From a phage, in sequence record PZ386971.1: a stretch of 64,000 nucleotides of DNA. One strand, 5' to 3'. This document shows, one piece after another, positions 4,560-58,028 of the stretch; the stretch's first letter is position 1; every line of letters starts with the position of its first letter. The notes below the pieces were generated by a model, which did not search any database, was not told where the DNA came from, and was given only the letters and a program-made list of their open reading frames with translations. A program made the translations under genes and the position numbers.

Positions 4560-4587
4560 TTTACTTCTTCAATAACTCACGTATAAT
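4560..4587 (+). promoter_or_regulatory. Early sigma70-type promoter (-35 TTTACT, 16 bp, -10 TATAAT), cassette A copy 1
   Basis: TTTACTtcttcaataactcacgTATAAT then conserved leader cataagcag..caacttgaaa and AGGAACTATATCATG. Confidence 0.55.
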
Positions 4588-14488: not shown

Positions 14489-14833
14489 ATGGCAGCAGAC
14501 ACCAAACTGAACAAATCCGTGGAGATCCCCCACATCGTCAAATTCGAAAAGCCGAGCGAGCGTAAGCCACGCAAATCGCGTCGCCTGGTCACCAAACTGG
14601 ATATTCTGAAACAGAAGTTCGGCGACCACAGCGTGTTCACGCGCATTCGAAATGCATTAAAGGAAGGGCGAACTGAGCTGGAACTATATCGACCGAACGG
14701 TTCGACACGCGCGTATCAGACCACTGACGGCTTACTGGAACTGATCCGCCTGAGCGGGATGACGATCGAACCTCGTTCGTCAGGCACTCCTCTGTGCTCC
14801 CTGTACGTAATCGGCAATCTTGGGGCGCTGTGA
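14489..14833 (+). CDS. Hypothetical protein with basic N-terminal region (114 aa)
   Basis: ORF with GAGGA SD; KPSERKPRKSRR segment. Confidence 0.5.
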   Translation: MAADTKLNKSVEIPHIVKFEKPSERKPRKSRRLVTKLDILKQKFGDHSVFTRIRNALKEGRTELELYRPNGSTRAYQTTDGLLELIRLSGMTIEPRSSGTPLCSLYVIGNLGAL

Positions 14834-14838
14834 GTTCT

Positions 14839-15261
14839 ATGAAGAAGTATATCGTTCTCATTACGGGTTCCCGCTCAATCACCGAGCGGGATAAGGTATT
14901 CGCCAAGCTGGACGAACTCCTCGATCCTCATGAAGTCTATACGTTGATCGAGGGTGAGGCCACGGGTGTCGACACGATTTGCCGTGATTGGGCTGAAATC
15001 AATTATGTTCATATCACCCCCATGCCGATCCCTCCGAGCTATTATGAAAAGTATGGGAACGGGATGGGTAACAAACGCAATCAGGACATGTTAGACAAGG
15101 CATTGGATCTCGTCAGGCAGACCAAGCTGGAAGTGTATCCGATTGCGATGTGGGATGGTTCGTCCACTGGCACCCTGGACATGATCAACCGTTGCAAGAA
15201 AGCTGGCCTCCCTGTGGATATCACTCTAATGGGTAAGCCGAAGACCAAGCGCCTTTTGTAA
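14839..15261 (+). CDS. SLOG-superfamily (DUF2493/YspA-like) nucleotide-binding protein
   Basis: 140 aa; VLITGSRSITERD ... EGEATGVDTICRDWAE pattern typical of DprA/LOG-like Rossmann domains found in phages. Confidence 0.5.
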   Translation: MKKYIVLITGSRSITERDKVFAKLDELLDPHEVYTLIEGEATGVDTICRDWAEINYVHITPMPIPPSYYEKYGNGMGNKRNQDMLDKALDLVRQTKLEVYPIAMWDGSSTGTLDMINRCKKAGLPVDITLMGKPKTKRLL

Positions 15262-15302
15262 CATATCATAAATAATTTGAGTACACACAGCGGAGATACA
15301 TC

Positions 15303-15473
15303 ATGTTTGTCGTCATCAATCTGTTCTGCTATATCTTCACGGCGTACTTCTTGGGCGCGGTATGGATCGAGACCTACAATGACCTGAAGGATGGGGAATA
15401 CGCCAACCGAATGGTTTATGTCAAGAAGTTTGTTCGTAAGTTCTGGTCCAACTTCGTTTACAAACTACCATGA
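15303..15473 (+). CDS. Small predicted membrane protein (56 aa)
   Basis: Not in the ORF track (under 60 aa); GGAGA SD; hydrophobic helix MFVVINLFCYIFTAYFLGAVW. Confidence 0.35.
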   Translation: MFVVINLFCYIFTAYFLGAVWIETYNDLKDGEYANRMVYVKKFVRKFWSNFVYKLP

Positions 15474-15511
15474 TCCCTAAATACCCCCATCATCCATGGG
15501 GGTATTTTCTT

Positions 15512-16240
15512 ATGAACGCACAGATCTATGACGCCCTATCGCAGGGCAACGCCTTTACCAATCCTCTCCCGTCCCTCAGCAGCGCCTCACAGGGGTTAAT
15601 CACCAGTGGTAAGGCGACTACAGCGTCACTGGCTAACACCGGAAATACGCAGATTCAGGAAGCGCTGACGGCAGGTGGGTTGACTACAGCCAAACTCAAC
15701 GAATCTACGGCGATGTTCAACTCAGCAAACACCAGCATCACCACGCTGATCAACTATGGCGACCAGTCAGTGAACGAGGCATATTCCCGCATCGGTACAT
15801 CTGTGTCGTATAAGTCCGCCCTGAAGTCTATAGGTCGAGAACCGAACAACTGTGATCTGATCAATAATGCATTTGGGGTTATTCAGAACCTCGGCAAACA
15901 GTGGATCAATACCATGCAAAGTGTTCTCACAACTATCACAAACAAGATGAATGAGTTGGCTGAATTGGTAGCTCAGGGTGTCAGTGCTGGTCTTGATGCT
16001 ATTCGGGCACTGGCTGCTGAAGTTACTCAGGCCATCGACACTGCTGTCGCATCAGTAGCCTCTATTGCTCAGGACATCACGAACGGTATTGCAGCAGAGT
16101 TAGCCCATATCCAAGACATGGTTGGTAAGTGTCTTAACTTCTCTTTTGCCAACGTGATCTCAGAGTGGGCGAAAGATATCTGCGCCGGAGGTGTCATCAA
16201 CAGCATTGGTTCCGATAATCTGAAGAACGCACTGAAGTAA
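15512..16240 (+). CDS. Hypothetical alpha-helical protein (243 aa), possibly late or virion-associated
   Basis: ATG 15512 preceded by late-like motif CCTAAATAC inside a hairpin; Ala/Thr/Ser-rich helical sequence. Confidence 0.5.
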   Translation: MNAQIYDALSQGNAFTNPLPSLSSASQGLITSGKATTASLANTGNTQIQEALTAGGLTTAKLNESTAMFNSANTSITTLINYGDQSVNEAYSRIGTSVSYKSALKSIGREPNNCDLINNAFGVIQNLGKQWINTMQSVLTTITNKMNELAELVAQGVSAGLDAIRALAAEVTQAIDTAVASVASIAQDITNGIAAELAHIQDMVGKCLNFSFANVISEWAKDICAGGVINSIGSDNLKNALK

Positions 16241-18707: not shown

Positions 18708-20216
18708 ATGGCAGACATCCAGATTGTTAAGGTTAATGAAGTCCGCATGCGTTGCATCGCAGATCTTTCTATCAGGGAAGAACTGAATGACTACTTCAAA
18801 TTCGAAGACCCGAACTTCGTTCCCAACCCCTTCTCTAAATGGGACGGGGTTGTTCGCTTGTTCACCAAGTCATCCGGCCTGATTGATATCGGCCTACTGT
18901 TTGAGGTGTTCAAGTTCTGCAAGAACAACAACTACACCATTGAACTGGATCCGGCTCTGAAGTACATTCAGGACATCCCAGACCAAGAAATCCATGACTT
19001 CATCAACAGTCTGCATCCAAAGATCCGCACCGAAAATCACGAATATATCGATGCCGAGACTCGTGACTACCAGTACGACACCATCGCCAAGGCTATGCGT
19101 CAAACCAGATGCGTCTGTGAACTGGCTACGAGTGCCGGTAAGTCCTTTATTCTGTATGTCATGGCGCGGTACTACAGGCAGCGCAGAGAAGCTCTCGAAA
19201 GTCCTCTGAAGACGCTTATCGTGGTTCCGTCAATTCACCTGGTCACTCAGCTGTACGACAACTTTGAAGAGTACGCACACGGCAGTGATTGGAAGCCCGT
19301 TGTCAACACTCAATTGATCTTTGAGGGCGCGACAAAGGAAATCAGCAAACCAATCGTCATCAGTACATGGCAGGGTATTCAAGACCAGCCGAAGGAATGG
19401 TTCCACCAGTTCGGTGATATCGTGGTGGATGAAGTGCACACCTCCAAGTCTGAGAAACTGTCTTACATCCTAAACAACTGCATCTATGCCGACCAGCGCC
19501 TGGGGGTTACAGGTACGCTGGCGAATACCAAAGTTGCCGGGCTTCAGGTGGTGGCTCACTTCGGGGCGTACCATAAGATCATCACGGCTCGCGATCTTAT
19601 CAATCTCGGGTACGCCACTGACATCAAAGTGAAGATGATTCAGCTGAAGCACACTCCGGCGGATGCTGTTGGTCTAGACGGGGATTATTCCAAGGAAATA
19701 GAATACCTTATCACACACCAGTCCCGCAACGAACTGATCGCCAAGATGGCACTGAATCTGAAAGGAAACGTGGCCATCATGTTCGAACGTATTGATGGTC
19801 ACATGATGGTCGTGTATGATATGCTGAGCGCAGTCAAGCCCAACGTGTTTGTCATCAACGGGGAAGTGAAGATCGAAGACCGCCGCCGCATACAGAAAGC
19901 GATGGAGGATGGAGAGGACATCACCCTGTTGGCATCATACGGGACAATGCAGCAGGGAGTGTCGATCAAGAAGCTACACCACCTTGTACTGGCACACCCG
20001 AGCAAGTCATATATCCGCGTCATACAGACATTGGGTCGTCTGATGCGTCAGCACTCCTCTAAGGACGTCGCGTGGATATGGGACTTAGTGGATGATGCAT
20101 CGTACAACGCCAGCACGAACCACGCTCTTAGGCACTCTCACGAGCGTTACAAGTTTTACCTGGCAGAGCGCCACCCTGTGGAATTCATGAAGGTGGCGCT
20201 GGGTAATCACGATTAA
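18708..20216 (+). CDS. uvsW: UvsW SF2 helicase
   Basis: ELATSAGKS Walker A, DEVH box, QPKEWFHQFG and KKLHHLVLAH match T4 UvsW QPKEWFSQFG and KNLHHVVLAH. Confidence 0.9.
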   Translation: MADIQIVKVNEVRMRCIADLSIREELNDYFKFEDPNFVPNPFSKWDGVVRLFTKSSGLIDIGLLFEVFKFCKNNNYTIELDPALKYIQDIPDQEIHDFINSLHPKIRTENHEYIDAETRDYQYDTIAKAMRQTRCVCELATSAGKSFILYVMARYYRQRREALESPLKTLIVVPSIHLVTQLYDNFEEYAHGSDWKPVVNTQLIFEGATKEISKPIVISTWQGIQDQPKEWFHQFGDIVVDEVHTSKSEKLSYILNNCIYADQRLGVTGTLANTKVAGLQVVAHFGAYHKIITARDLINLGYATDIKVKMIQLKHTPADAVGLDGDYSKEIEYLITHQSRNELIAKMALNLKGNVAIMFERIDGHMMVVYDMLSAVKPNVFVINGEVKIEDRRRIQKAMEDGEDITLLASYGTMQQGVSIKKLHHLVLAHPSKSYIRVIQTLGRLMRQHSSKDVAWIWDLVDDASYNASTNHALRHSHERYKFYLAERHPVEFMKVALGNHD

Positions 20217-20584: not shown

Positions 20585-20768
20585 ATATTACTCTCGTGTG
20601 TTGGTTAACCTGACATACATATTATTTCGCATGCATGTTTAGACCAAATTAAATTAATTTTGCTGTTGAATAAAAAATTGCTTTCCTGTTGAACAATGGC
20701 GTGGTATTATACGAGTTGTGAGTGTTAACGAACAACGAGTATTTGTTTTATGAGCGAAGCGAATAGGA

Positions 20769-20817
20769 TTAATAAAGATTATTATCTTTAATAAAGGTTA
20801 TTATCTTTAATAAAGTC
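20769..20817. repeat. Tandem near-palindromic repeats, 2.5 copies of AATAAAG(A/G)TTATTATCTTT
   Basis: Each unit holds the inverted repeat AAAGAT-TATT-ATCTTT; lies in a 364-bp AT-rich divergent intergenic region. Confidence 0.6.
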
Positions 20818-41991: not shown

Positions 41992-42783
41992 ATGGGAATG
42001 AACTTCGTGGACAGAGGGGAGAATGTCGTCAAATATTTCACGGACGAAGACAACGAGCGTGTCATTAGTATCCTTCGTGATTGGATCCCCGCCCGCAAGA
42101 AAGCACTTGCTGAGGGCACCAGGCTTCCAAAGATCCCCAACTATGTTGCTCTGCAGGTCCAGCGCATCATCACCAAGATGAGTACCCGCTACAACTATCG
42201 CGACTATCCCTTCCGTGAAGACATGGTCTCTGAAGCAATAGTCAACATCCTGCGCTACCTCCACACCTTTGACGTCGAACACATTGGAAAGAAAGGGAAG
42301 ATCAACTTCTTCTCTTGGGTGACCATGTGCGCTGATCGATCATTCGCTCGTAAACTGAATATCGAAGAAGAACACACGTACATCAAATTGCGCTCATTTG
42401 AAGAGGCGGGTGGGTTCGCAGGCCTGGCAGACGATCCCGACTTCCAACAAGAGATCTTTGTTGACGCGACAGGGATTGGTATGGACTTCCGTGAGCGTAT
42501 CGGTAACTTTGAGAACAAAAAGGACGCTCAAAGGCAGAAGGAGCGAGAGAAGGTGGAGGCGGCTCGTCTCGCAGAATCGAATAAAAAGATTGCGAAAGGC
42601 ATACTTCAATACATGGCGCAGGCTAAGAATACGGTAACAGCGCAGGCCGAAGACAATTCAGATCAGGACTTTGGCAAAACCCAATTCAATCTGGAAGATG
42701 ATATCTGTGCGATGGAACCAGATTGGGAAGCCCTCAAACAAAGATTAGAAGAACGGGAGAAAAAGAATAATGGCGATTGCTAA
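41992..42783 (+). CDS. 55: Late sigma factor (T4 gp55-like)
   Basis: NFFSWVTMCADRSFARKLNIEEEH resembles T4 gp55 [24 protein letters not shown]; lies upstream of gp47/gp46 as in T4. Confidence 0.6.
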   Translation: MGMNFVDRGENVVKYFTDEDNERVISILRDWIPARKKALAEGTRLPKIPNYVALQVQRIITKMSTRYNYRDYPFREDMVSEAIVNILRYLHTFDVEHIGKKGKINFFSWVTMCADRSFARKLNIEEEHTYIKLRSFEEAGGFAGLADDPDFQQEIFVDATGIGMDFRERIGNFENKKDAQRQKEREKVEAARLAESNKKIAKGILQYMAQAKNTVTAQAEDNSDQDFGKTQFNLEDDICAMEPDWEALKQRLEEREKKNNGDC

Positions 42784-46981: not shown

Positions 46982-46991
46982 GGCTGAAGGG

Positions 46992-47001
46992 CACTAAATA
47001 C
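46992..47001 (+). promoter_or_regulatory. Late-promoter-like motif CACTAAATAC in a hairpin loop
   Basis: gggcac-TAAATACCAC-gtgccc; same motif class as at 10389 and 18674. Confidence 0.3.
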
Positions 47002-47080
47002 CACGTGCCCTTTATCTTTTAACCCCTGTCAGGAGGCTCAAGCGAGCTGCAAGTCGACAAACCACATAAGGAACGCCATC

Positions 47081-52759: not shown

Positions 52760-52852
52760 AAGGTTGCACTAGACGACGCCACGGCGAAAGAACTTGGTCT
52801 GTAACTGGATCCCCCTAAATACAGGGGGATTTCTTTTTCTGAGGACAACATC

Positions 52853-53886: not shown

Positions 53887-54171
53887 ATGTCATTAGCAGC
53901 ATACAACAAAGAATTTTCAGAAATAAATTATGACTTCTTGTTTGCGAGTGAGCGCCGATTTGTACAGGCGAATGAATATTTGGAAAACCACGGTATGGAA
54001 TCCAGATATGAAAATATATTGAACATGCAAGCGGCCATGGCGACGACTGAACTTGGGGCTGACAGTTATGAAGCCAAAGCATATTCTCGTCTTACCCATT
54101 ATGATCAGACCATGGTAGAAAAATATAAATCTATCCTTTCTCAGAACGGGTGGGTAAATGAAATTTCTTGA
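53887..54171 (+). CDS. Hypothetical small protein (94 aa)
   Basis: ATG 53887 with AGAGGTG SD; track ORF begins upstream. Confidence 0.4.
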   Translation: MSLAAYNKEFSEINYDFLFASERRFVQANEYLENHGMESRYENILNMQAAMATTELGADSYEAKAYSRLTHYDQTMVEKYKSILSQNGWVNEIS

Positions 54172-55219
54172 CGAACAATTCATAAATTACGTTGCTCCCA
54201 GACTCGATAAATTCAAGTGGGAACGTGTTGGGTCTGTCGCAAATTTTAGATGCCCACTTTGTGGAGATTCTCTCAAAAGTGCTAACAAGCGACGCGGTTA
54301 TTTTTTCTTCGATCGAGATAATGATTGCTTTCGGTTTAAATGTCATAATTGCCATAACATGAGTGGCTGGGCGTTTGAGTTCTGGTTGAAGAAGTTTGAT
54401 GAACGCTTGTCCACCGAGTACAACATGGAGAAGTTCCGTCTGCTGGGTGATTCATCTTCCAAGCCGCTCCCGGCGCTGAAGCCTTTGCCAAAGCTGACAC
54501 AGTCAGCCCGTATCGGTTCAATGGAGGCTAAACGCGACGAGAGCCTCCTCGGCAATATGCTCCGACTTGATCTGCTACCGCCCAACCATAAGGCTCGGCA
54601 GTACGTACAGGGCAGGGGAATGCCGGAGAGCACGTTGCCCCTCCTGTATTACACCCAACACTTCCGCCAGGATCTACTCCAGTTCGAAACGAACCCCGAG
54701 AAGCAGCTGAAAATCCCCGATGACGAACGGCTGGTGATTCCATTCTGGACGCAAGACGGGCGTATGAAGATCGTCCAGGGGCGTGCATTTGAAGTGCGTG
54801 ATGGGATACTGCGGTACTCTACTGTCAAGCCGCGCGATGAAGACACTAAGGTCTATGGTGAAGACCGGGTGAACATTCACAAGACCAAGCTGGTTGTGGA
54901 AGGTCCGATTGACAGCCTATTCCTACCCAACTGTCTTGCATCGGCCGACGCTGATCTACTGAGTGTGAAGGGCGACATCTATATCCCCGACAACCAGTAC
55001 CGGAACCCGCAGGTGTGTGACGGTATCCAGAAGATGATAGATAAAGGTGTCAAGGTTGTACTGTTCCCACCAGACGTTCCTTGGAAGGATATCAACGACA
55101 TGGTCATGCCATCAAAGGGCAACATGTCCATACAAGACCTCCTGAAGCTGATCGCCAAGAACGTTTACCAGGGTATGGCCGCATCATTACAATTCGCAGA
55201 ACTGAGGAAAGTACGATGA
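54158..55219 (+). CDS. 61: DNA primase (T4 gp61-like, zinc ribbon + TOPRIM)
   Basis: FRCPLCGDS...FKCHNCH zinc-binding region; VVEGPIDSLF TOPRIM acidic motif. Confidence 0.7.
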   Translation: MKFLDEQFINYVAPRLDKFKWERVGSVANFRCPLCGDSLKSANKRRGYFFFDRDNDCFRFKCHNCHNMSGWAFEFWLKKFDERLSTEYNMEKFRLLGDSSSKPLPALKPLPKLTQSARIGSMEAKRDESLLGNMLRLDLLPPNHKARQYVQGRGMPESTLPLLYYTQHFRQDLLQFETNPEKQLKIPDDERLVIPFWTQDGRMKIVQGRAFEVRDGILRYSTVKPRDEDTKVYGEDRVNIHKTKLVVEGPIDSLFLPNCLASADADLLSVKGDIYIPDNQYRNPQVCDGIQKMIDKGVKVVLFPPDVPWKDINDMVMPSKGNMSIQDLLKLIAKNVYQGMAASLQFAELRKVR

Positions 55220-55422
55220 CGTTAGAAGAACTGAACAAACTGGACGACGGAGAGATCTTGCGGGGGTACTTGAAATCTCGTGAGGGATATGTCCTATCTG
55301 GGGAAGAGTCTCCGAGTTTCATCCACGGCTGGAAGAATGGTCAGGCGGACTTCCATGGGGTTCCCATCAGTGATGAGCAGGCCGAATTGGCTCGCGAGTT
55401 TGTAAGATTTCGCCCGAACTAA
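55216..55422 (+). CDS. Hypothetical small protein (68 aa)
   Basis: ATG overlapping the primase stop. Confidence 0.4.
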   Translation: MTLEELNKLDDGEILRGYLKSREGYVLSGEESPSFIHGWKNGQADFHGVPISDEQAELAREFVRFRPN

Positions 55423-55450
55423 AACTTTTTAATTCACATTACTTCCCTCC

Positions 55451-55476
55451 AGGCCTCATTCGACGAGGCCTTTTAA
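55451..55476 (+). terminator. Rho-independent terminator
   Basis: aggcctcATTCGACgaggcct then TTTT. Confidence 0.6.
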
Positions 55477-55516
55477 AATACTTCAAAAATAATTTTAAAA
55501 AATTATTGAAAAAGAC

Positions 55517-55548
55517 TTTACTCTTCAATAATAGCGCACTATTATAAT
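55517..55548 (+). promoter_or_regulatory. Strong early promoter with AT-rich upstream element (-35 TTTACT, 17 bp, -10 TATTATAAT)
   Basis: aaaataattttaaaaaattattgaaaaagaCTTTACTcttcaataatagcgcacTATTATAAT. Confidence 0.5.
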
Positions 55549-55617
55549 CACATAGGGCGGCAACACACCGCCGAATGAAAAGTGAAACGAACCAACTACA
55601 TTATGAGGAATTACATC

Positions 55618-56106
55618 ATGGCTACTACCAAAACTCTGATCACCAACGGCACCATCTCTTTCGAACTGAACACCGAAGTTGCTAAAGTTGAAATGTTCCG
55701 CATCGCTCAAGCAGCTGGCTTCACTGGTGGCAAAACTTCCTTCATGAACCTGCTGAACGGTAAAGTGAAAGCGACTAACGGCTTCACCCTGGTAGAGCAG
55801 GTTGTGGTTGATAAAGCTGTGGTTGCTAAGACTGCCGACAAAGTTGGTATGCTGAAAAACCTGGGCCACGACATTCACATTGTCGAAGCGAAGACCGAAA
55901 CTTACGGCACCATCGTAGTCGGTAAAGGTCGCATCCAGCTGAACCCACTGAACAACGGTTCCTTCTCTGTGATGGTCTTCCCTAAGAAGGGATACGACAA
56001 CACCGACATCGTGAAAGCTGCTGGCGGCGAAGCAAAAGCTCAGTACGTCAAAATGGGTAAACTGAGCGCCGACGCAGTTGAAGATCTGGTGAGCAAACTG
56101 GCCTAA
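55618..56106 (+). CDS. Hypothetical protein (162 aa), probably abundant
   Basis: Strong promoter and UP element upstream; codon choice looks biased toward abundant codons; Gly/Lys/Thr-rich. Confidence 0.55.
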   Translation: MATTKTLITNGTISFELNTEVAKVEMFRIAQAAGFTGGKTSFMNLLNGKVKATNGFTLVEQVVVDKAVVAKTADKVGMLKNLGHDIHIVEAKTETYGTIVVGKGRIQLNPLNNGSFSVMVFPKKGYDNTDIVKAAGGEAKAQYVKMGKLSADAVEDLVSKLA

Positions 56107-56252
56107 TCCAGACGTGTAACATAGGGGAGGCAACTCCCCCTATCAGGTCTTGGGAGGAGATCACAGTCATTCAATCCTCTTTGGTGCTCTCTGGGTTGCT
56201 GACACATCCAGAACAAAGTCTCCCCCAGCTCCTCGAGTAGTTCACTTTCACT

Positions 56253-56262
56253 TTAAATACCT
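56253..56262 (+). promoter_or_regulatory. Late-promoter-like motif CTTTAAATAC upstream of endolysin
   Basis: About 27 nt upstream of ATG 56289; the SD GGAGGT lies in a possible hairpin acctcTGCATTCATTGTGgaggt. Confidence 0.3.
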
Positions 56263-56288
56263 CTGCATTCATTGTGGAGGTATTTCTT

Positions 56289-57083
56289 ATGGCCATTCTA
56301 AAACTTGGCAACCGTGGCACTGAAGTGAAGGCACTTCAGGATAGCCTCAACAAAATCGGCTTCACCCTCGTCGCTGATGGTATCTTTGGCAAGGCAACAG
56401 AGAACGCCGTCAAGACTGTTCAGGCGGGTGCGGGGCTTGTCATCGATGGTATCGTGGGTCCAAAGACCTCCTATGCTATTCGCAACGCCGGAGACGCCCA
56501 TCAGGATCATCTAACTGAGTCAGACCTGATTGATGCTGCTAACGATCTGGGTGTTGACCTCGCCTCTGTCAAGGCGGTGAATCAGGTTGAGTCGCGCGGC
56601 ACGGGCTTCACCAAGTCAGGTAAGATCAAGACATTATTTGAGCGCCACATCATGTATAAGAAGCTGATGGCGAAGTTCGGACAGGCTCGGGCGAATGCCA
56701 TGGGACATATGTACCCGACGTTGGTCAGTCCTTCCGCAGGCGGGTACACGGGAGGCGACGCGGAGTTGGATCGACTTCATGCGGCCATCAACATCGATGA
56801 GGATTGTGCGTACGAGAGCGCCTCTTACGGTCTCTTCCAGATCATGGGATTCAACTGCCAGGTCTGTGGATACGCCAACGCCAAGGAGATGTTCAACGAC
56901 TTCCTGACAGGAGAACGTGCTCATTTGATGGCATTCGTGAAGTTCATCAAGGCTGACGCCAAGCTCTGGCAGGCTCTGAAGGACAAGAACTGGTCTGAAT
57001 TTGCACGGCGCTATAATGGTCCGGCGTATGCCAAGAACCAGTACGACAAGAAGCTCGCAGCAGCATACAAGAGTTTCAGTTAA
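56289..57083 (+). CDS. Endolysin: peptidoglycan-binding domain + DUF3380-type muramidase domain
   Basis: N-terminus LKLGNRGTEVKALQDSLNKIGF...DGIFGKATENAVKTVQ (PG_binding_1-like); C-terminus ESRGTGF...SYGLFQIMGFN...WSEFARRYNGP. Confidence 0.8.
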   Translation: MAILKLGNRGTEVKALQDSLNKIGFTLVADGIFGKATENAVKTVQAGAGLVIDGIVGPKTSYAIRNAGDAHQDHLTESDLIDAANDLGVDLASVKAVNQVESRGTGFTKSGKIKTLFERHIMYKKLMAKFGQARANAMGHMYPTLVSPSAGGYTGGDAELDRLHAAINIDEDCAYESASYGLFQIMGFNCQVCGYANAKEMFNDFLTGERAHLMAFVKFIKADAKLWQALKDKNWSEFARRYNGPAYAKNQYDKKLAAAYKSFS

Positions 57084-57088
57084 CTCAA

Positions 57089-57111
57089 AGGCCGGAAACG
57101 GCCTTTTCTTT
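57089..57111 (+). terminator. Rho-independent terminator after endolysin
   Basis: aggccgGAAAcggcct then TTTCTTT. Confidence 0.6.
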
Positions 57112-57185
57112 ATCCAATCCTCAGGTATGCTGGGGTTGTCACCTTAATTAGAGGTGATGACACCCTGAGATATAGGAAGGTTCCC

Positions 57186-58028
57186 ATGCAATCTGCCACC
57201 AAAGTTGTAAGTAAGAAGCCAGCGGGTAAGACCAAGTCAGCACGTAAGAAAGAGACAATTCAGAAAGAAGATGACTGGATGAAGTTCTCTAAAGGTGACT
57301 TCAGAATCGCTCCATTCAATGGCCTCTCAGAAAATCAGAACCTCGCGTATCAATCTGCTCTTGAAGAAAACCTCACCATCGCAATCGGTCCGGCAGGCAC
57401 AGGTAAATCGTATTGTGGTGCCTCAGCCGCCGCCAAGCTCCTGATCGATAAAGTGGTCAGCAAGATCGTCATCACGCGCTCTCCGCTGCCAACAGGCCAG
57501 ACTGCAGGCTTCCGCCCTGGCGACACATACGAAAAACTGATGCCATATCTGATGCCCCTGATTCAGACGCTGAAGAAGGTGCTGAAGACTGACACAGGTA
57601 GCGACGGTTTCTTCAACTATCTGTGGGAGAAGCGGATCATTGAGATCCAGGATCTGGAGACCATCAAGGGGATGACCTTCGACGACACCTTCCTGATCAT
57701 TGAAGAAGCGCAGGAATGTGATATGGAGCAGCTGAAGAACCTACTGACCCGCGCATCCGACTCGACTTATATCTTTGTCAACGGTGACATCAAACAGTCC
57801 AACAAGCGCCTGCGCGACAGCGCCCTTGAAAAGTACGTCAGTTCCTTCCGCGACTTCAACGCCAAGCTGGAGGCCGGAACCCTGAAGATCGATGGTATTG
57901 ACGTCGGTGATGAGTACCCTGAATGGGTTCAGCCGTTCAGTATCATCGAGTTCGACAAGTCTGACCGCAACGGGCGCGGCGACTTCACCCGCCTGATGCT
58001 GGAAGTCAACGATCTGTACGACATTTAA
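57186..58028 (+). CDS. phoH: PhoH-like ATPase
   Basis: GPAGTGKS Walker A and IIEEAQE Walker B-like segment in a 280-aa protein, as in PhoH family. Confidence 0.8.
   Translation: MQSATKVVSKKPAGKTKSARKKETIQKEDDWMKFSKGDFRIAPFNGLSENQNLAYQSALEENLTIAIGPAGTGKSYCGASAAAKLLIDKVVSKIVITRSPLPTGQTAGFRPGDTYEKLMPYLMPLIQTLKKVLKTDTGSDGFFNYLWEKRIIEIQDLETIKGMTFDDTFLIIEEAQECDMEQLKNLLTRASDSTYIFVNGDIKQSNKRLRDSALEKYVSSFRDFNAKLEAGTLKIDGIDVGDEYPEWVQPFSIIEFDKSDRNGRGDFTRLMLEVNDLYDI

Follow-up and report, generated by a model that had tools for sequence, protein, structure and literature searches.

In a 64,000-nucleotide (nt) stretch of phage DNA (sequence record PZ386971.1; this whole stretch is called the window below), a gene for a 162-amino acid (aa) protein and the endolysin gene that follows it are separated by 182 nt, at positions 56107–56288, and the question raised by this locus is what such a gap does in front of a lysis gene. 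A preliminary description made from the letters alone had called the gap non-coding, and indeed no credible open reading frame (ORF) is found in it; an RNA stability or processing element, a small RNA, or a translational control for lysis timing had been suggested for it. The gap consists of three unrelated parts in series, namely a GNRA-tetraloop hairpin, the remnant of a lost gene, and a predicted late promoter fused to a hairpin that covers the Shine-Dalgarno (SD) sequence of the endolysin gene. The third part carries the main finding: the endolysin leader is probably gated in the manner of T4 gene e, being masked in early transcripts and bypassed by late ones. The analysis draws on sequence anatomy, conservation, covariation, deletion history and codon bias, and from these the promoter classes, transcript ends, read-through and translational effect are predicted.

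The hairpin over the endolysin SD had already been noticed in part; it is present, and with 13 base pairs (bp) it is longer than was seen at first. It reads AAAUACCUCUGCA-uucau-UGUGGAGGUAUUU, and its two arms are occupied by different signals. The 3′ arm contains the SD and the U-rich spacer between the SD and the AUG, while the 5′ arm overlaps a putative T4-type late promoter whose core, TAAATA, adjoins the hairpin in such a way that AAATA forms the outer five pairs of the stem. None of 200 shuffled sequences folds as well as 56255–56285, and the helix over the SD persists when the whole 211-nt region is folded. RNA running from the predicted late +1 to the start codon, on the other hand, has a folding free energy (dG) of −4.3 kcal/mol and a z-score relative to shuffled sequences (z) of 0.1, no better than the shuffled ones.

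The same arrangement is found throughout the relatives. Sixteen distinct leaders representing at least six genera were compared: those of Agtrevirus, Limestonevirus, two Kuttervirus types, Klebsiella Taipeivirus, Serratia Miltonvirus (phiMAM1, Kevin) and Erwinia phage Bue1, together with six from metagenomic or Logan contigs that were found via the 162-aa protein. All of them have TAAATA 27–33 nt before the ATG and a hairpin with the SD in its 3′ arm. The dG of the hairpin ranges from −9.7 to −23.1 (z of −3.8 or lower in 13 of the 16), and that of the predicted late form from 0 to −4.1. The stems themselves vary, as in CCTCTGCA/TGTGGAGG, CCTTCGCA/TGCGGAGG, CCCTCTGAA/TTCAGAGGG, CCCTTTACA/TGTAAGGGG and CCCTTGTAT/ATACAGGGG. 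Two leaders cannot be aligned to the rest: in L190 (TCCTAAAT/ATTTAGGA) the promoter itself is the 5′ arm, and L193 has GTCCTCATAT/ATATGAGGAC. Furthermore, in L192 (3362–4099) and L193 (3541–4308), both metagenomic Ackermannviridae-like contigs, the slot is taken by an endolysin of PG_binding_1 and CHAP domains behind a leader of the same design, so that the catalytic domain is swapped (CHAP for muramidase) with the leader design kept.

Covariation was counted on 15 sequences with a covariance model built from ten leaders, which replaced a MAFFT alignment that misplaced the inner stem of the distant ones. Paired cells make up 92.7% of the alignment, compared with 84.3 ± 1.4 in shuffles; 16 cells are changed on both sides (4 of the 13 pairs), compared with 6.3 ± 2.1; and the covariation score is 0.292, compared with 0.154. 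No shuffle out of 500 reaches any of these three values, and when the partner is slid by 1–3 columns as a control, pairing is 44–65%. Folding and covariation in related phages, which the preliminary description had named as a check, thus speak for the SD hairpin. On the plus strand of the window, the covariance model finds two sites only, the endolysin leader with 58.8 bits and 15474–15514 with 40.9 bits. A strong SD-covering hairpin accompanies only two of the eleven plus-strand genes preceded by TAAATA, endolysin and the gene starting at 15512, and a weaker one is found before the helicase at 18708, which shows that the hairpin does not simply follow from having a promoter and an SD close together. 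These data support a real hairpin, conserved with compensatory changes, which is best read as a control of lysis gene expression. Translational control of lysis timing is thus the early suggestion that stood, in an altered form: the TAAATA late core, missed at first, would make it a mechanism of the T4 gene e kind.

The second site is a near-copy of the endolysin leader module, TAAATAcCCCCATcatccATGGGGGtattttcttATG (15474–15514, dG −17.2), which is kept in Dickeya phage phiDP23.1 and in pSal-SNUABM-02. ORFs 14794–15261 and 15512–16240 correspond to the N-terminal and C-terminal halves of phrog_289 (“GTP-binding domain,” 500 aa), and the leader copy precedes the second half. Between the halves lies a 56-aa hydrophobic ORF, 15303–15473 (phrog_4845), with its own TAAATA at 15269.

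That TAAATA is a promoter core is indicated by its distribution. It occurs 21 times in the window, both strands counted, and its end lies 22–35 nt upstream of 8 of the 81 predicted gene starts, compared with 0.19 expected (Poisson P 3e-11); none of the other permutations of its letters is found more than three times at gene starts. Most of the sites at gene starts read ACTAAATA, a variant late consensus reported for Aeromonas phage Aeh1 (PMC2988020). The box before endolysin resembles the TATAAATA type, and a gp55 homolog is encoded in the window; homologs of gp55, gp33, and gp45 are present in ViI-like phages (PMC3184105). The 2011 papers on CBA120 and AG3 had not yet identified a late consensus or the lysis genes for this group (PMC3184105). 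The homologous site of LIMEstone1 was annotated as a late promoter by its authors. The site at 56252–56259 is accordingly annotated here as a predicted T4-type, gp55-dependent late promoter. Since the 8-bp late box of T4 spans positions −13 to −6 (PMC2988020), the late start is predicted at about 56265, eleven nt into the 13-nt 5′ arm.

From these elements the following course of events can be proposed. Early in infection, a host-sigma-70 promoter with an UP element (55471–55545) would drive the 162-aa gene, whose mRNA would be bracketed by a 5′ stem-loop and the GNRA hairpin. Small accessory genes that were once co-transcribed with it would have been lost with about 425 bp between CAGTTCC repeats, and what is left of them is junk: an orphan SD and some 70 nt of remnant that lack a start codon. 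Transcripts coming from upstream would fold 56255–56285 and bury the SD, GGAGG, and the U-rich 3′ flank may also terminate some of them; no endolysin would be made early. Later, a gp55-type sigma factor would initiate at TAAATA, inside the 5′ arm, and the late mRNA, devoid of this arm, would expose the SD and allow translation of endolysin.

This course is that of T4 gene e, where a helix formed over the ribosome-binding site goes with poor translation of the long early transcripts (McPheeters et al., 1986; reviewed in PMC3014915), while late promoters inside the DNA of the 5′ strand yield helix-free, well-translated mRNA (PMC3014915). The same design operates at T4 soc, 49, and I-TevI (PMC3014915). 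In both phages, earlier transcription comes from upstream of the gene for a lysis enzyme, the SD of long transcripts is paired in a helix (by prediction in the present phage), a late promoter of the TATAAATA type is located in the DNA of the 5′ strand of that helix, and a gp55-type late sigma factor is encoded. There are differences as well. The present phage belongs to Ackermannviridae and not to the T-even group, and its gate is a prediction from sequence; its endolysin, PG_binding_1 plus PF11860 muramidase (CHAP in some relatives), is not homologous to T4 lysozyme; one promoter box is found rather than two, with the core TAAATA behind a variable 5′ pair; and the helix pairs the promoter AAAUA with the U-rich spacer between SD and AUG, so that it is terminator-like too.

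Several points weigh against gating. The alignment used for covariation was fitted to the structure of the model and many of its sequences are closely related, and 6 of the 13 pairs are invariant, being promoter box and SD. The box itself, TTTAAATA, matches the T4 consensus at only seven of eight positions, and the promoter classes, the late +1 and the read-through past the first hairpin are all predictions. Moreover, it is not evident what advantage gating would bring, since an endolysin that has no signal sequence does no damage in the cytoplasm unless a holin is present; the same holds for T4 e. The remaining points concern termination: the homologous hairpin of LIMEstone1 was annotated as a “putative factor-independent terminator,” and the spacer between SD and AUG is U-rich in 15 of the 16 leaders (UAUUUCUU, UUUUUCAUU, CUUUUUU, UUUUUUAUU) whereas it is A-rich at other genes of the window.

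These last points lead to the rival that survives best. The segment 56255–56285 may be mainly a Rho-independent terminator that ends the early operon, with an incidental overlap of the SD, and late transcripts would escape it by starting inside the stem. We regard this as a serious possibility, though a rather doubtful one as the whole explanation, and it can be combined with gating. Up to six consecutive U are found in the Serratia-type and L193 leaders, and TAAATA is located in the loops of clear U-tract terminator hairpins at 46995 and 52816, as if late promoters in terminators were a habit of this phage. The full 13-bp stem, however, is followed by only three U in the next 8 nt (the tail past its GC-rich core is AUUUCUUAU), the terminator scan did not flag the site, and in most leaders the U residues are paired with the promoter AAAUA. 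A further point against pure termination is that the SD lies in the 3′ arm in every lineage, even where the stems are wholly different as in L190 and L193, which termination does not require. Termination and masking would lead to the same outcome: early transcription would yield no endolysin, and the late promoter would express it freely.

The two loop-borne sites are GGGCAC-taaataccac-GTGCCC plus TTT at 46986–47012 and ATCCCCC-taaatac-AGGGGGAT plus TTCTTTTT at 52808–52840. At both of them, the late start would fall inside the 3′ arm, and the transcript would avoid termination.

A broader reading, tentative and in our view a little short of an even chance, is that the promoter-in-hairpin cassette of about 31 nt is a portable general insulator in Ackermannviridae, terminating or silencing early read-through and skipped by gp55 initiation in its own stem, and that, separately, the 162-aa protein is a host-takeover factor. 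The insulator is suggested because the cassette is kept across the endolysin swap and reused at 15474–15514, and because TAAATA stands in the terminator loops at 46995 and 52816.

Whether early transcription reaches the endolysin leader at all depends on the first part of the gap, the GNRA hairpin. The preliminary description had placed it about 4 nt too far to the left; otherwise it is present as described, without a U-tract, its stem being followed by the tail CUAUCAGGU with three U in 9 nt, short of the U-tract of a Rho-independent terminator. In 20 of 22 loci, a GC-rich hairpin starts 0–23 nt past the stop codon of the 162-aa gene, with unrelated stems: GGGGAG/CTCCCC in the window, GGGGGA/TCCCCC in one Kuttervirus group, GCCGGGG/CCCCGGC in Serratia phages, GAGGGGG/CCCCCTC in Vibrio phage K474, and GCGGGG/CCCCGC in Erwinia phage Bue1. 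Most loops are of the GNRA (12 loci) or UUCG type. In Escherichia phage AV101 (L199), the loop is ACAA, compared with GCAA in the rest of the clade (homolog of 56130), and the GNRA signature is broken.

If this hairpin were a true, efficient terminator, early transcription would never reach endolysin, which would leave the second hairpin without early transcripts on which to act. The regular presence of a GC-rich hairpin 3′ of the stop codon would agree with that, and in a few lineages (UUUUG in Vibrio D504, UUUCUU in VP-1, and L190) it is directly followed by a U-run. Such an assignment is nevertheless improbable for the window: neither it nor most enterobacterial relatives have a U-tract (0 to 4 U in 9 nt), and five or more U in the next 9 nt are found at just four of the loci. 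In relatives, furthermore, the SD of the next small gene lies 20–40 nt past the hairpin without an intervening promoter, and therefore polymerase must read through from upstream. The 56124–56139 hairpin is most likely a 3′-end stabilizer or a weak attenuator of the abundant upstream cistron that would allow read-through.

Intercistronic tetraloop hairpins, C(UUCG)G and GNRA, were reportedly first noted in T4 mRNAs by Tuerk and colleagues in 1988. The present hairpin resembles them, and the 3′ stabilizers of bacterial operons, in being a very stable GC-rich tetraloop hairpin just past the stop codon of an abundant cistron, in lacking a U-tract, and in having a conserved position but not a conserved sequence. 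Unlike them, the hairpin of some Vibrio relatives carries a U-tract and may be an ordinary terminator, and the function proposed here is predicted.

The middle of the gap has a different origin. In LIMEstone1, ChubbyThor, YX22, and 18 IMG/VR loci, one to three small genes are found between the 162-aa gene and endolysin, and a 62-aa gene is always among them. Alignment with these relatives reveals that about 425 bp, comprising the rest of the 62-aa gene and a second gene, are missing from the window and from vB_CECAV_050; in LIMEstone1 and ChubbyThor the missing stretch is flanked by the direct repeat CAGTTCC. The window has also lost 12 bp immediately 3′ of the orphan SD, and with them the ATG of the 62-aa gene; Salmonella phage SW16-7 is an intermediate with the same large deletion, an intact ATG and a 29-codon stub. 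The remnant at 56162–56232 has three further 1-nt indels, and one of its frames reads GALWVAD, matching the 62-aa protein, so that homology, a lost start codon, frameshifts, and truncation are found together, as in a pseudogene. Among six phages sharing both deletions, no other segment of the 1.5 kb varies as much as the remnant (0.208 variable sites per column, three indel columns), and there is no substitution in the adjacent 53 columns covering the late promoter and the hairpin.

That the 182-nt gap acts as a unit, as a small stable or regulatory RNA or a processing element, is very improbable: the whole region does fold better than shuffled (z −3.0) and both hairpins are individually stable, but it is the two terminal hairpins that account for this good fold, no Rfam match at E ≤ 10 is found in the gap (a cmscan of 54000–58000 at this threshold returned only a chance microRNA match elsewhere in the stretch), the central 85 nt are homologous to the coding 5′ end of a gene intact in most relatives and are the most variable part, with length polymorphisms, among phages sharing the deletion, and no promoter or terminator frames the gap as a separate unit. 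Because of this homology and variability, the indels and the absence of an Rfam match, the centre of the gap (about 56153–56232) is read from its sequence as a decaying deletion scar and not as a small RNA. Of the early suggestions, the small RNA is accordingly not supported, and the stability or processing element is plausible for the conserved GNRA hairpin at the 3′ end of the gene but not for the gap as one structured unit, some 85 nt of which are gene remnant.

The slot itself is a hypervariable accessory cassette (L001–L023, L189–L195), with a gap of 60 to 1340 nt and with the 62-aa gene nearly always there. Its partners are unrelated genes of 92, 99, 101, or 111 aa, a 65-aa gene, and a 38–40-aa zinc-ribbon gene (CPHCG…CPxCG). 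The lost small genes (62 aa and about 100 aa) have neither a Pfam or NCBIfam match nor transmembrane character, and they were not read as holin or spanin. Minus-strand ORFs of 37–49 aa over the gap were rejected as mechanical calls, the frame not being conserved given the indels among close relatives.

The early side of the locus begins with a terminator-like hairpin followed by TTTT, as had been described, which ends the unit of primase and a small ORF. It is labelled a terminator in the LIMEstone1 record, and Vibrio relatives have a hairpin with a U-tract at the same place. The promoter just past it had been called the best of the window. By hexamers it is not, since it matches at 9 of 12 positions and 16 other sites match at 10 of 12 or more; the claim holds for the upstream tract, as 55471–55515 is the most AT-rich 45-mer of the window (0.91 AT). 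What distinguishes this promoter is thus its upstream tract and its conservation, not the hexamer score. The tract is conserved in all relatives compared, the promoter is kept family-wide, from Agtrevirus to Erwinia and Serratia phages, and the order of terminator, AT-rich tract, promoter, ATAGGGCGG stem-loop, and gene extends to Vibrio phages. A 17-bp spacing of the hexamers and an AT-rich stretch from −40 to −60 are both present in 55471–55545, as in sigma-70 promoters with an UP element.

In LIMEstone1, the promoter was labelled “middle promoter” (MotA-type). As MotA and AsiA are absent from ViI-like phages (PMC3184105), the label is doubtful; the spacing is not that of a MotA box either, and this assignment was rejected. 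Probably, 55471–55545 belongs to the early, sigma-70-dependent class, which is a better assignment than middle. It is a member of a phage-specific family, CTTTACT.CTTCAATAA-N7-8-TATAAT … CATAAGCA, which probably represents the consensus of early promoters in this group of phages; the CBA120 paper had stated that an early consensus could not be identified. Copies of the family are found on the plus strand near 4560, 14013, 25802, 48362, and 55517, several of them directly after terminator hairpins, with the −10 variant TATA(A/C)T, then CATAAGCA or CATAGGGC at the likely start, and with similar 5′ untranslated regions (TTGAAACGAAGGAA…ATATCATG). The early “UP/−35/−10” promoters of T4 (PMC2988021) are alike in having an AT-rich UP tract and −35-like and −10 hexamers; the present one shares with them a place just past a terminator and before a gene with extreme codon bias. 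Unlike them, it has no TGn extension, its hexamers match at just 9 of 12, and its spacer motif, CTTCAATAA, is foreign to T4. Elsewhere in the window, an AT-rich tandem repeat, TAATAAAG(A/G)TTATTATCTT, is present in at least two copies at about 20770–20815, including the second most AT-rich 45-mer, and another AT-rich stretch lies at 20635.

The ATAGGGCGG motif at the predicted 5′ end of the mRNA for the 162-aa protein is conserved from Agtrevirus to Erwinia and Serratia phages. It forms a 5′-proximal stem-loop in most phages compared, its 3′ partner being less regular, and it could be a 5′ stabilizer or a signal in the initially transcribed sequence.

The 162-aa gene, whose limits had been given correctly, belongs to the core genes of the whole family, with tblastn matches in 354 phage records, from Salmonella, Escherichia, Klebsiella, Dickeya, Serratia, Erwinia, Vibrio, and Aeromonas phages. 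Its codon bias is the strongest among 59 genes of the window (effective number of codons 34.9, compared with a median of 50.6). Leu is encoded by CTG at all 12 positions, Asn only by AAC, Phe only by TTC, and Thr only by ACC and ACT. Such a pattern is typical of highly expressed Escherichia coli genes. Together with the AT-richest upstream tract, these are marks of strong expression, in agreement with what had been expected for the gene, and they suggest that it is very highly expressed. The protein is absent from the 39 virion proteins of LIMEstone1 (virion proteome, PMC3296691). An AlphaFold (AF2) model of it is confident (mean predicted local distance difference test score, pLDDT, 87.5). 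With this model, Foldseek gave no match in the PDB (best E 0.17) and only uncharacterized phage relatives in BFVD, and searches with the sequence gave no Pfam match, NCBIfam matches far under the cut-off, and E values of 0.16 or more in a PDB profile search. Because it is the most codon-biased gene of the window, a family-wide core gene, and without a fold match in the PDB, its product could be a new, very abundant early host-takeover factor.

The source of the window is an Ackermannviridae phage, ViI-like and of the Agtrevirus type. The 1.5 kb around the locus are 96–98% identical to those of Salmonella phage vB_CECAV_050 and Escherichia phages A221, LHE287, and AV101, and 80–91% identical to those of more than 200 further Ackermannviridae (Agtrevirus, Limestonevirus, Kuttervirus). 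The gene order is DNA primase, a 68-aa ORF, the 162-aa gene, endolysin, PhoH, and NrdA. A metagenome scan with the endolysin alignment gave just distant endolysins of 35–46% identity, with no Ackermannviridae context. Taken as a whole, the locus is likely to be an early transcription unit continuing into a late lysis gene, with boundaries marked by RNA hairpins. The coordinates are collected in Table 1.

Table 1. Features of the early unit, the gap, and the lysis gene, and the late sigma factor homolog encoded in the window.
Feature	Position	Strand	Remarks
Terminator-like hairpin, AGGCCTC-attcgac-GAGGCCT then TTTT	55451–55474	+	dG −12.2, z −3.8
AT-rich tract, UP-element-like	55471–55516	+	Conserved in all relatives compared
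Putative sigma-70-type promoter, TTTACT-17-TATTAT	55517–55545	+	9/12 hexamer match
5′-proximal stem-loop, GGCGG-caacaca-CCGCC	55556–55572	+	About 4 nt past predicted +1 of early mRNA; local hairpin in fold of 5′ untranslated region
Gene for 162-aa core Ackermannviridae protein, PHROG 3764	55618–56106	+	ATG to TAA, 162 codons; E 1e-91; PHROG annotated as function unknown
GNRA-tetraloop hairpin, GGGGAG-GCAA-CTCCCC	56124–56139	+	dG −12.3, z −3.2
Orphan SD of lost 62-aa gene, GGAGGAG	56153–56159	+	Aligns to SD of LIMEstone1 ORF072
Pseudogene remnant, 5′ third of 62-aa gene (phrog_3594), frameshifted	56162–56232	+	Ends at deletion junction CAGCTCC/TCGAG (slash marks the junction)
Predicted T4-type late promoter box, TTTAAATA	56252–56259	+	Core TAAATA 56254–56259; predicted late +1 about 56265
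13-bp SD-covering hairpin	56255–56285	+	dG −15.7, z −4.66
Endolysin SD, GGAGG	56276–56280	+	Pairing probability 1.00 in long leader
Endolysin, PG_binding_1 + N-acetylmuramidase PF11860	56289–57083	+	Pfam E 6e-59 and 1.4e-14
Intrinsic terminator 3′ of endolysin	57087–57106	+	Terminator scan
gp55 late sigma homolog (T4 late sigma factor; phrog_234)	41992–42783		E 3e-52

In the literature searched, no Ackermannviridae transcriptome and no earlier report of this hairpin or mechanism in Ackermannviridae were found. The mechanism is classical for T-even phages, and its family-wide conservation together with the endolysin swap is neat but not surprising. For genome scans, the locus is a caution that a well-folding gap can be a deletion scar between two real elements. 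The 162-aa gene is probably the most strongly expressed gene of unknown function in this part of the genome and is a target for functional work, and the 31-nt element may serve engineering as a ready-made sigma-dependent switch. For ViI-like phages, which are widely used in biocontrol and therapy, the leader provides a testable model for late endolysin expression. The trick of T4 gene e would not be tied to T4 lysozyme: it appears to have recurred, or to have been retained, with unrelated endolysins in a sister family, which argues for selection on the regulatory logic itself.

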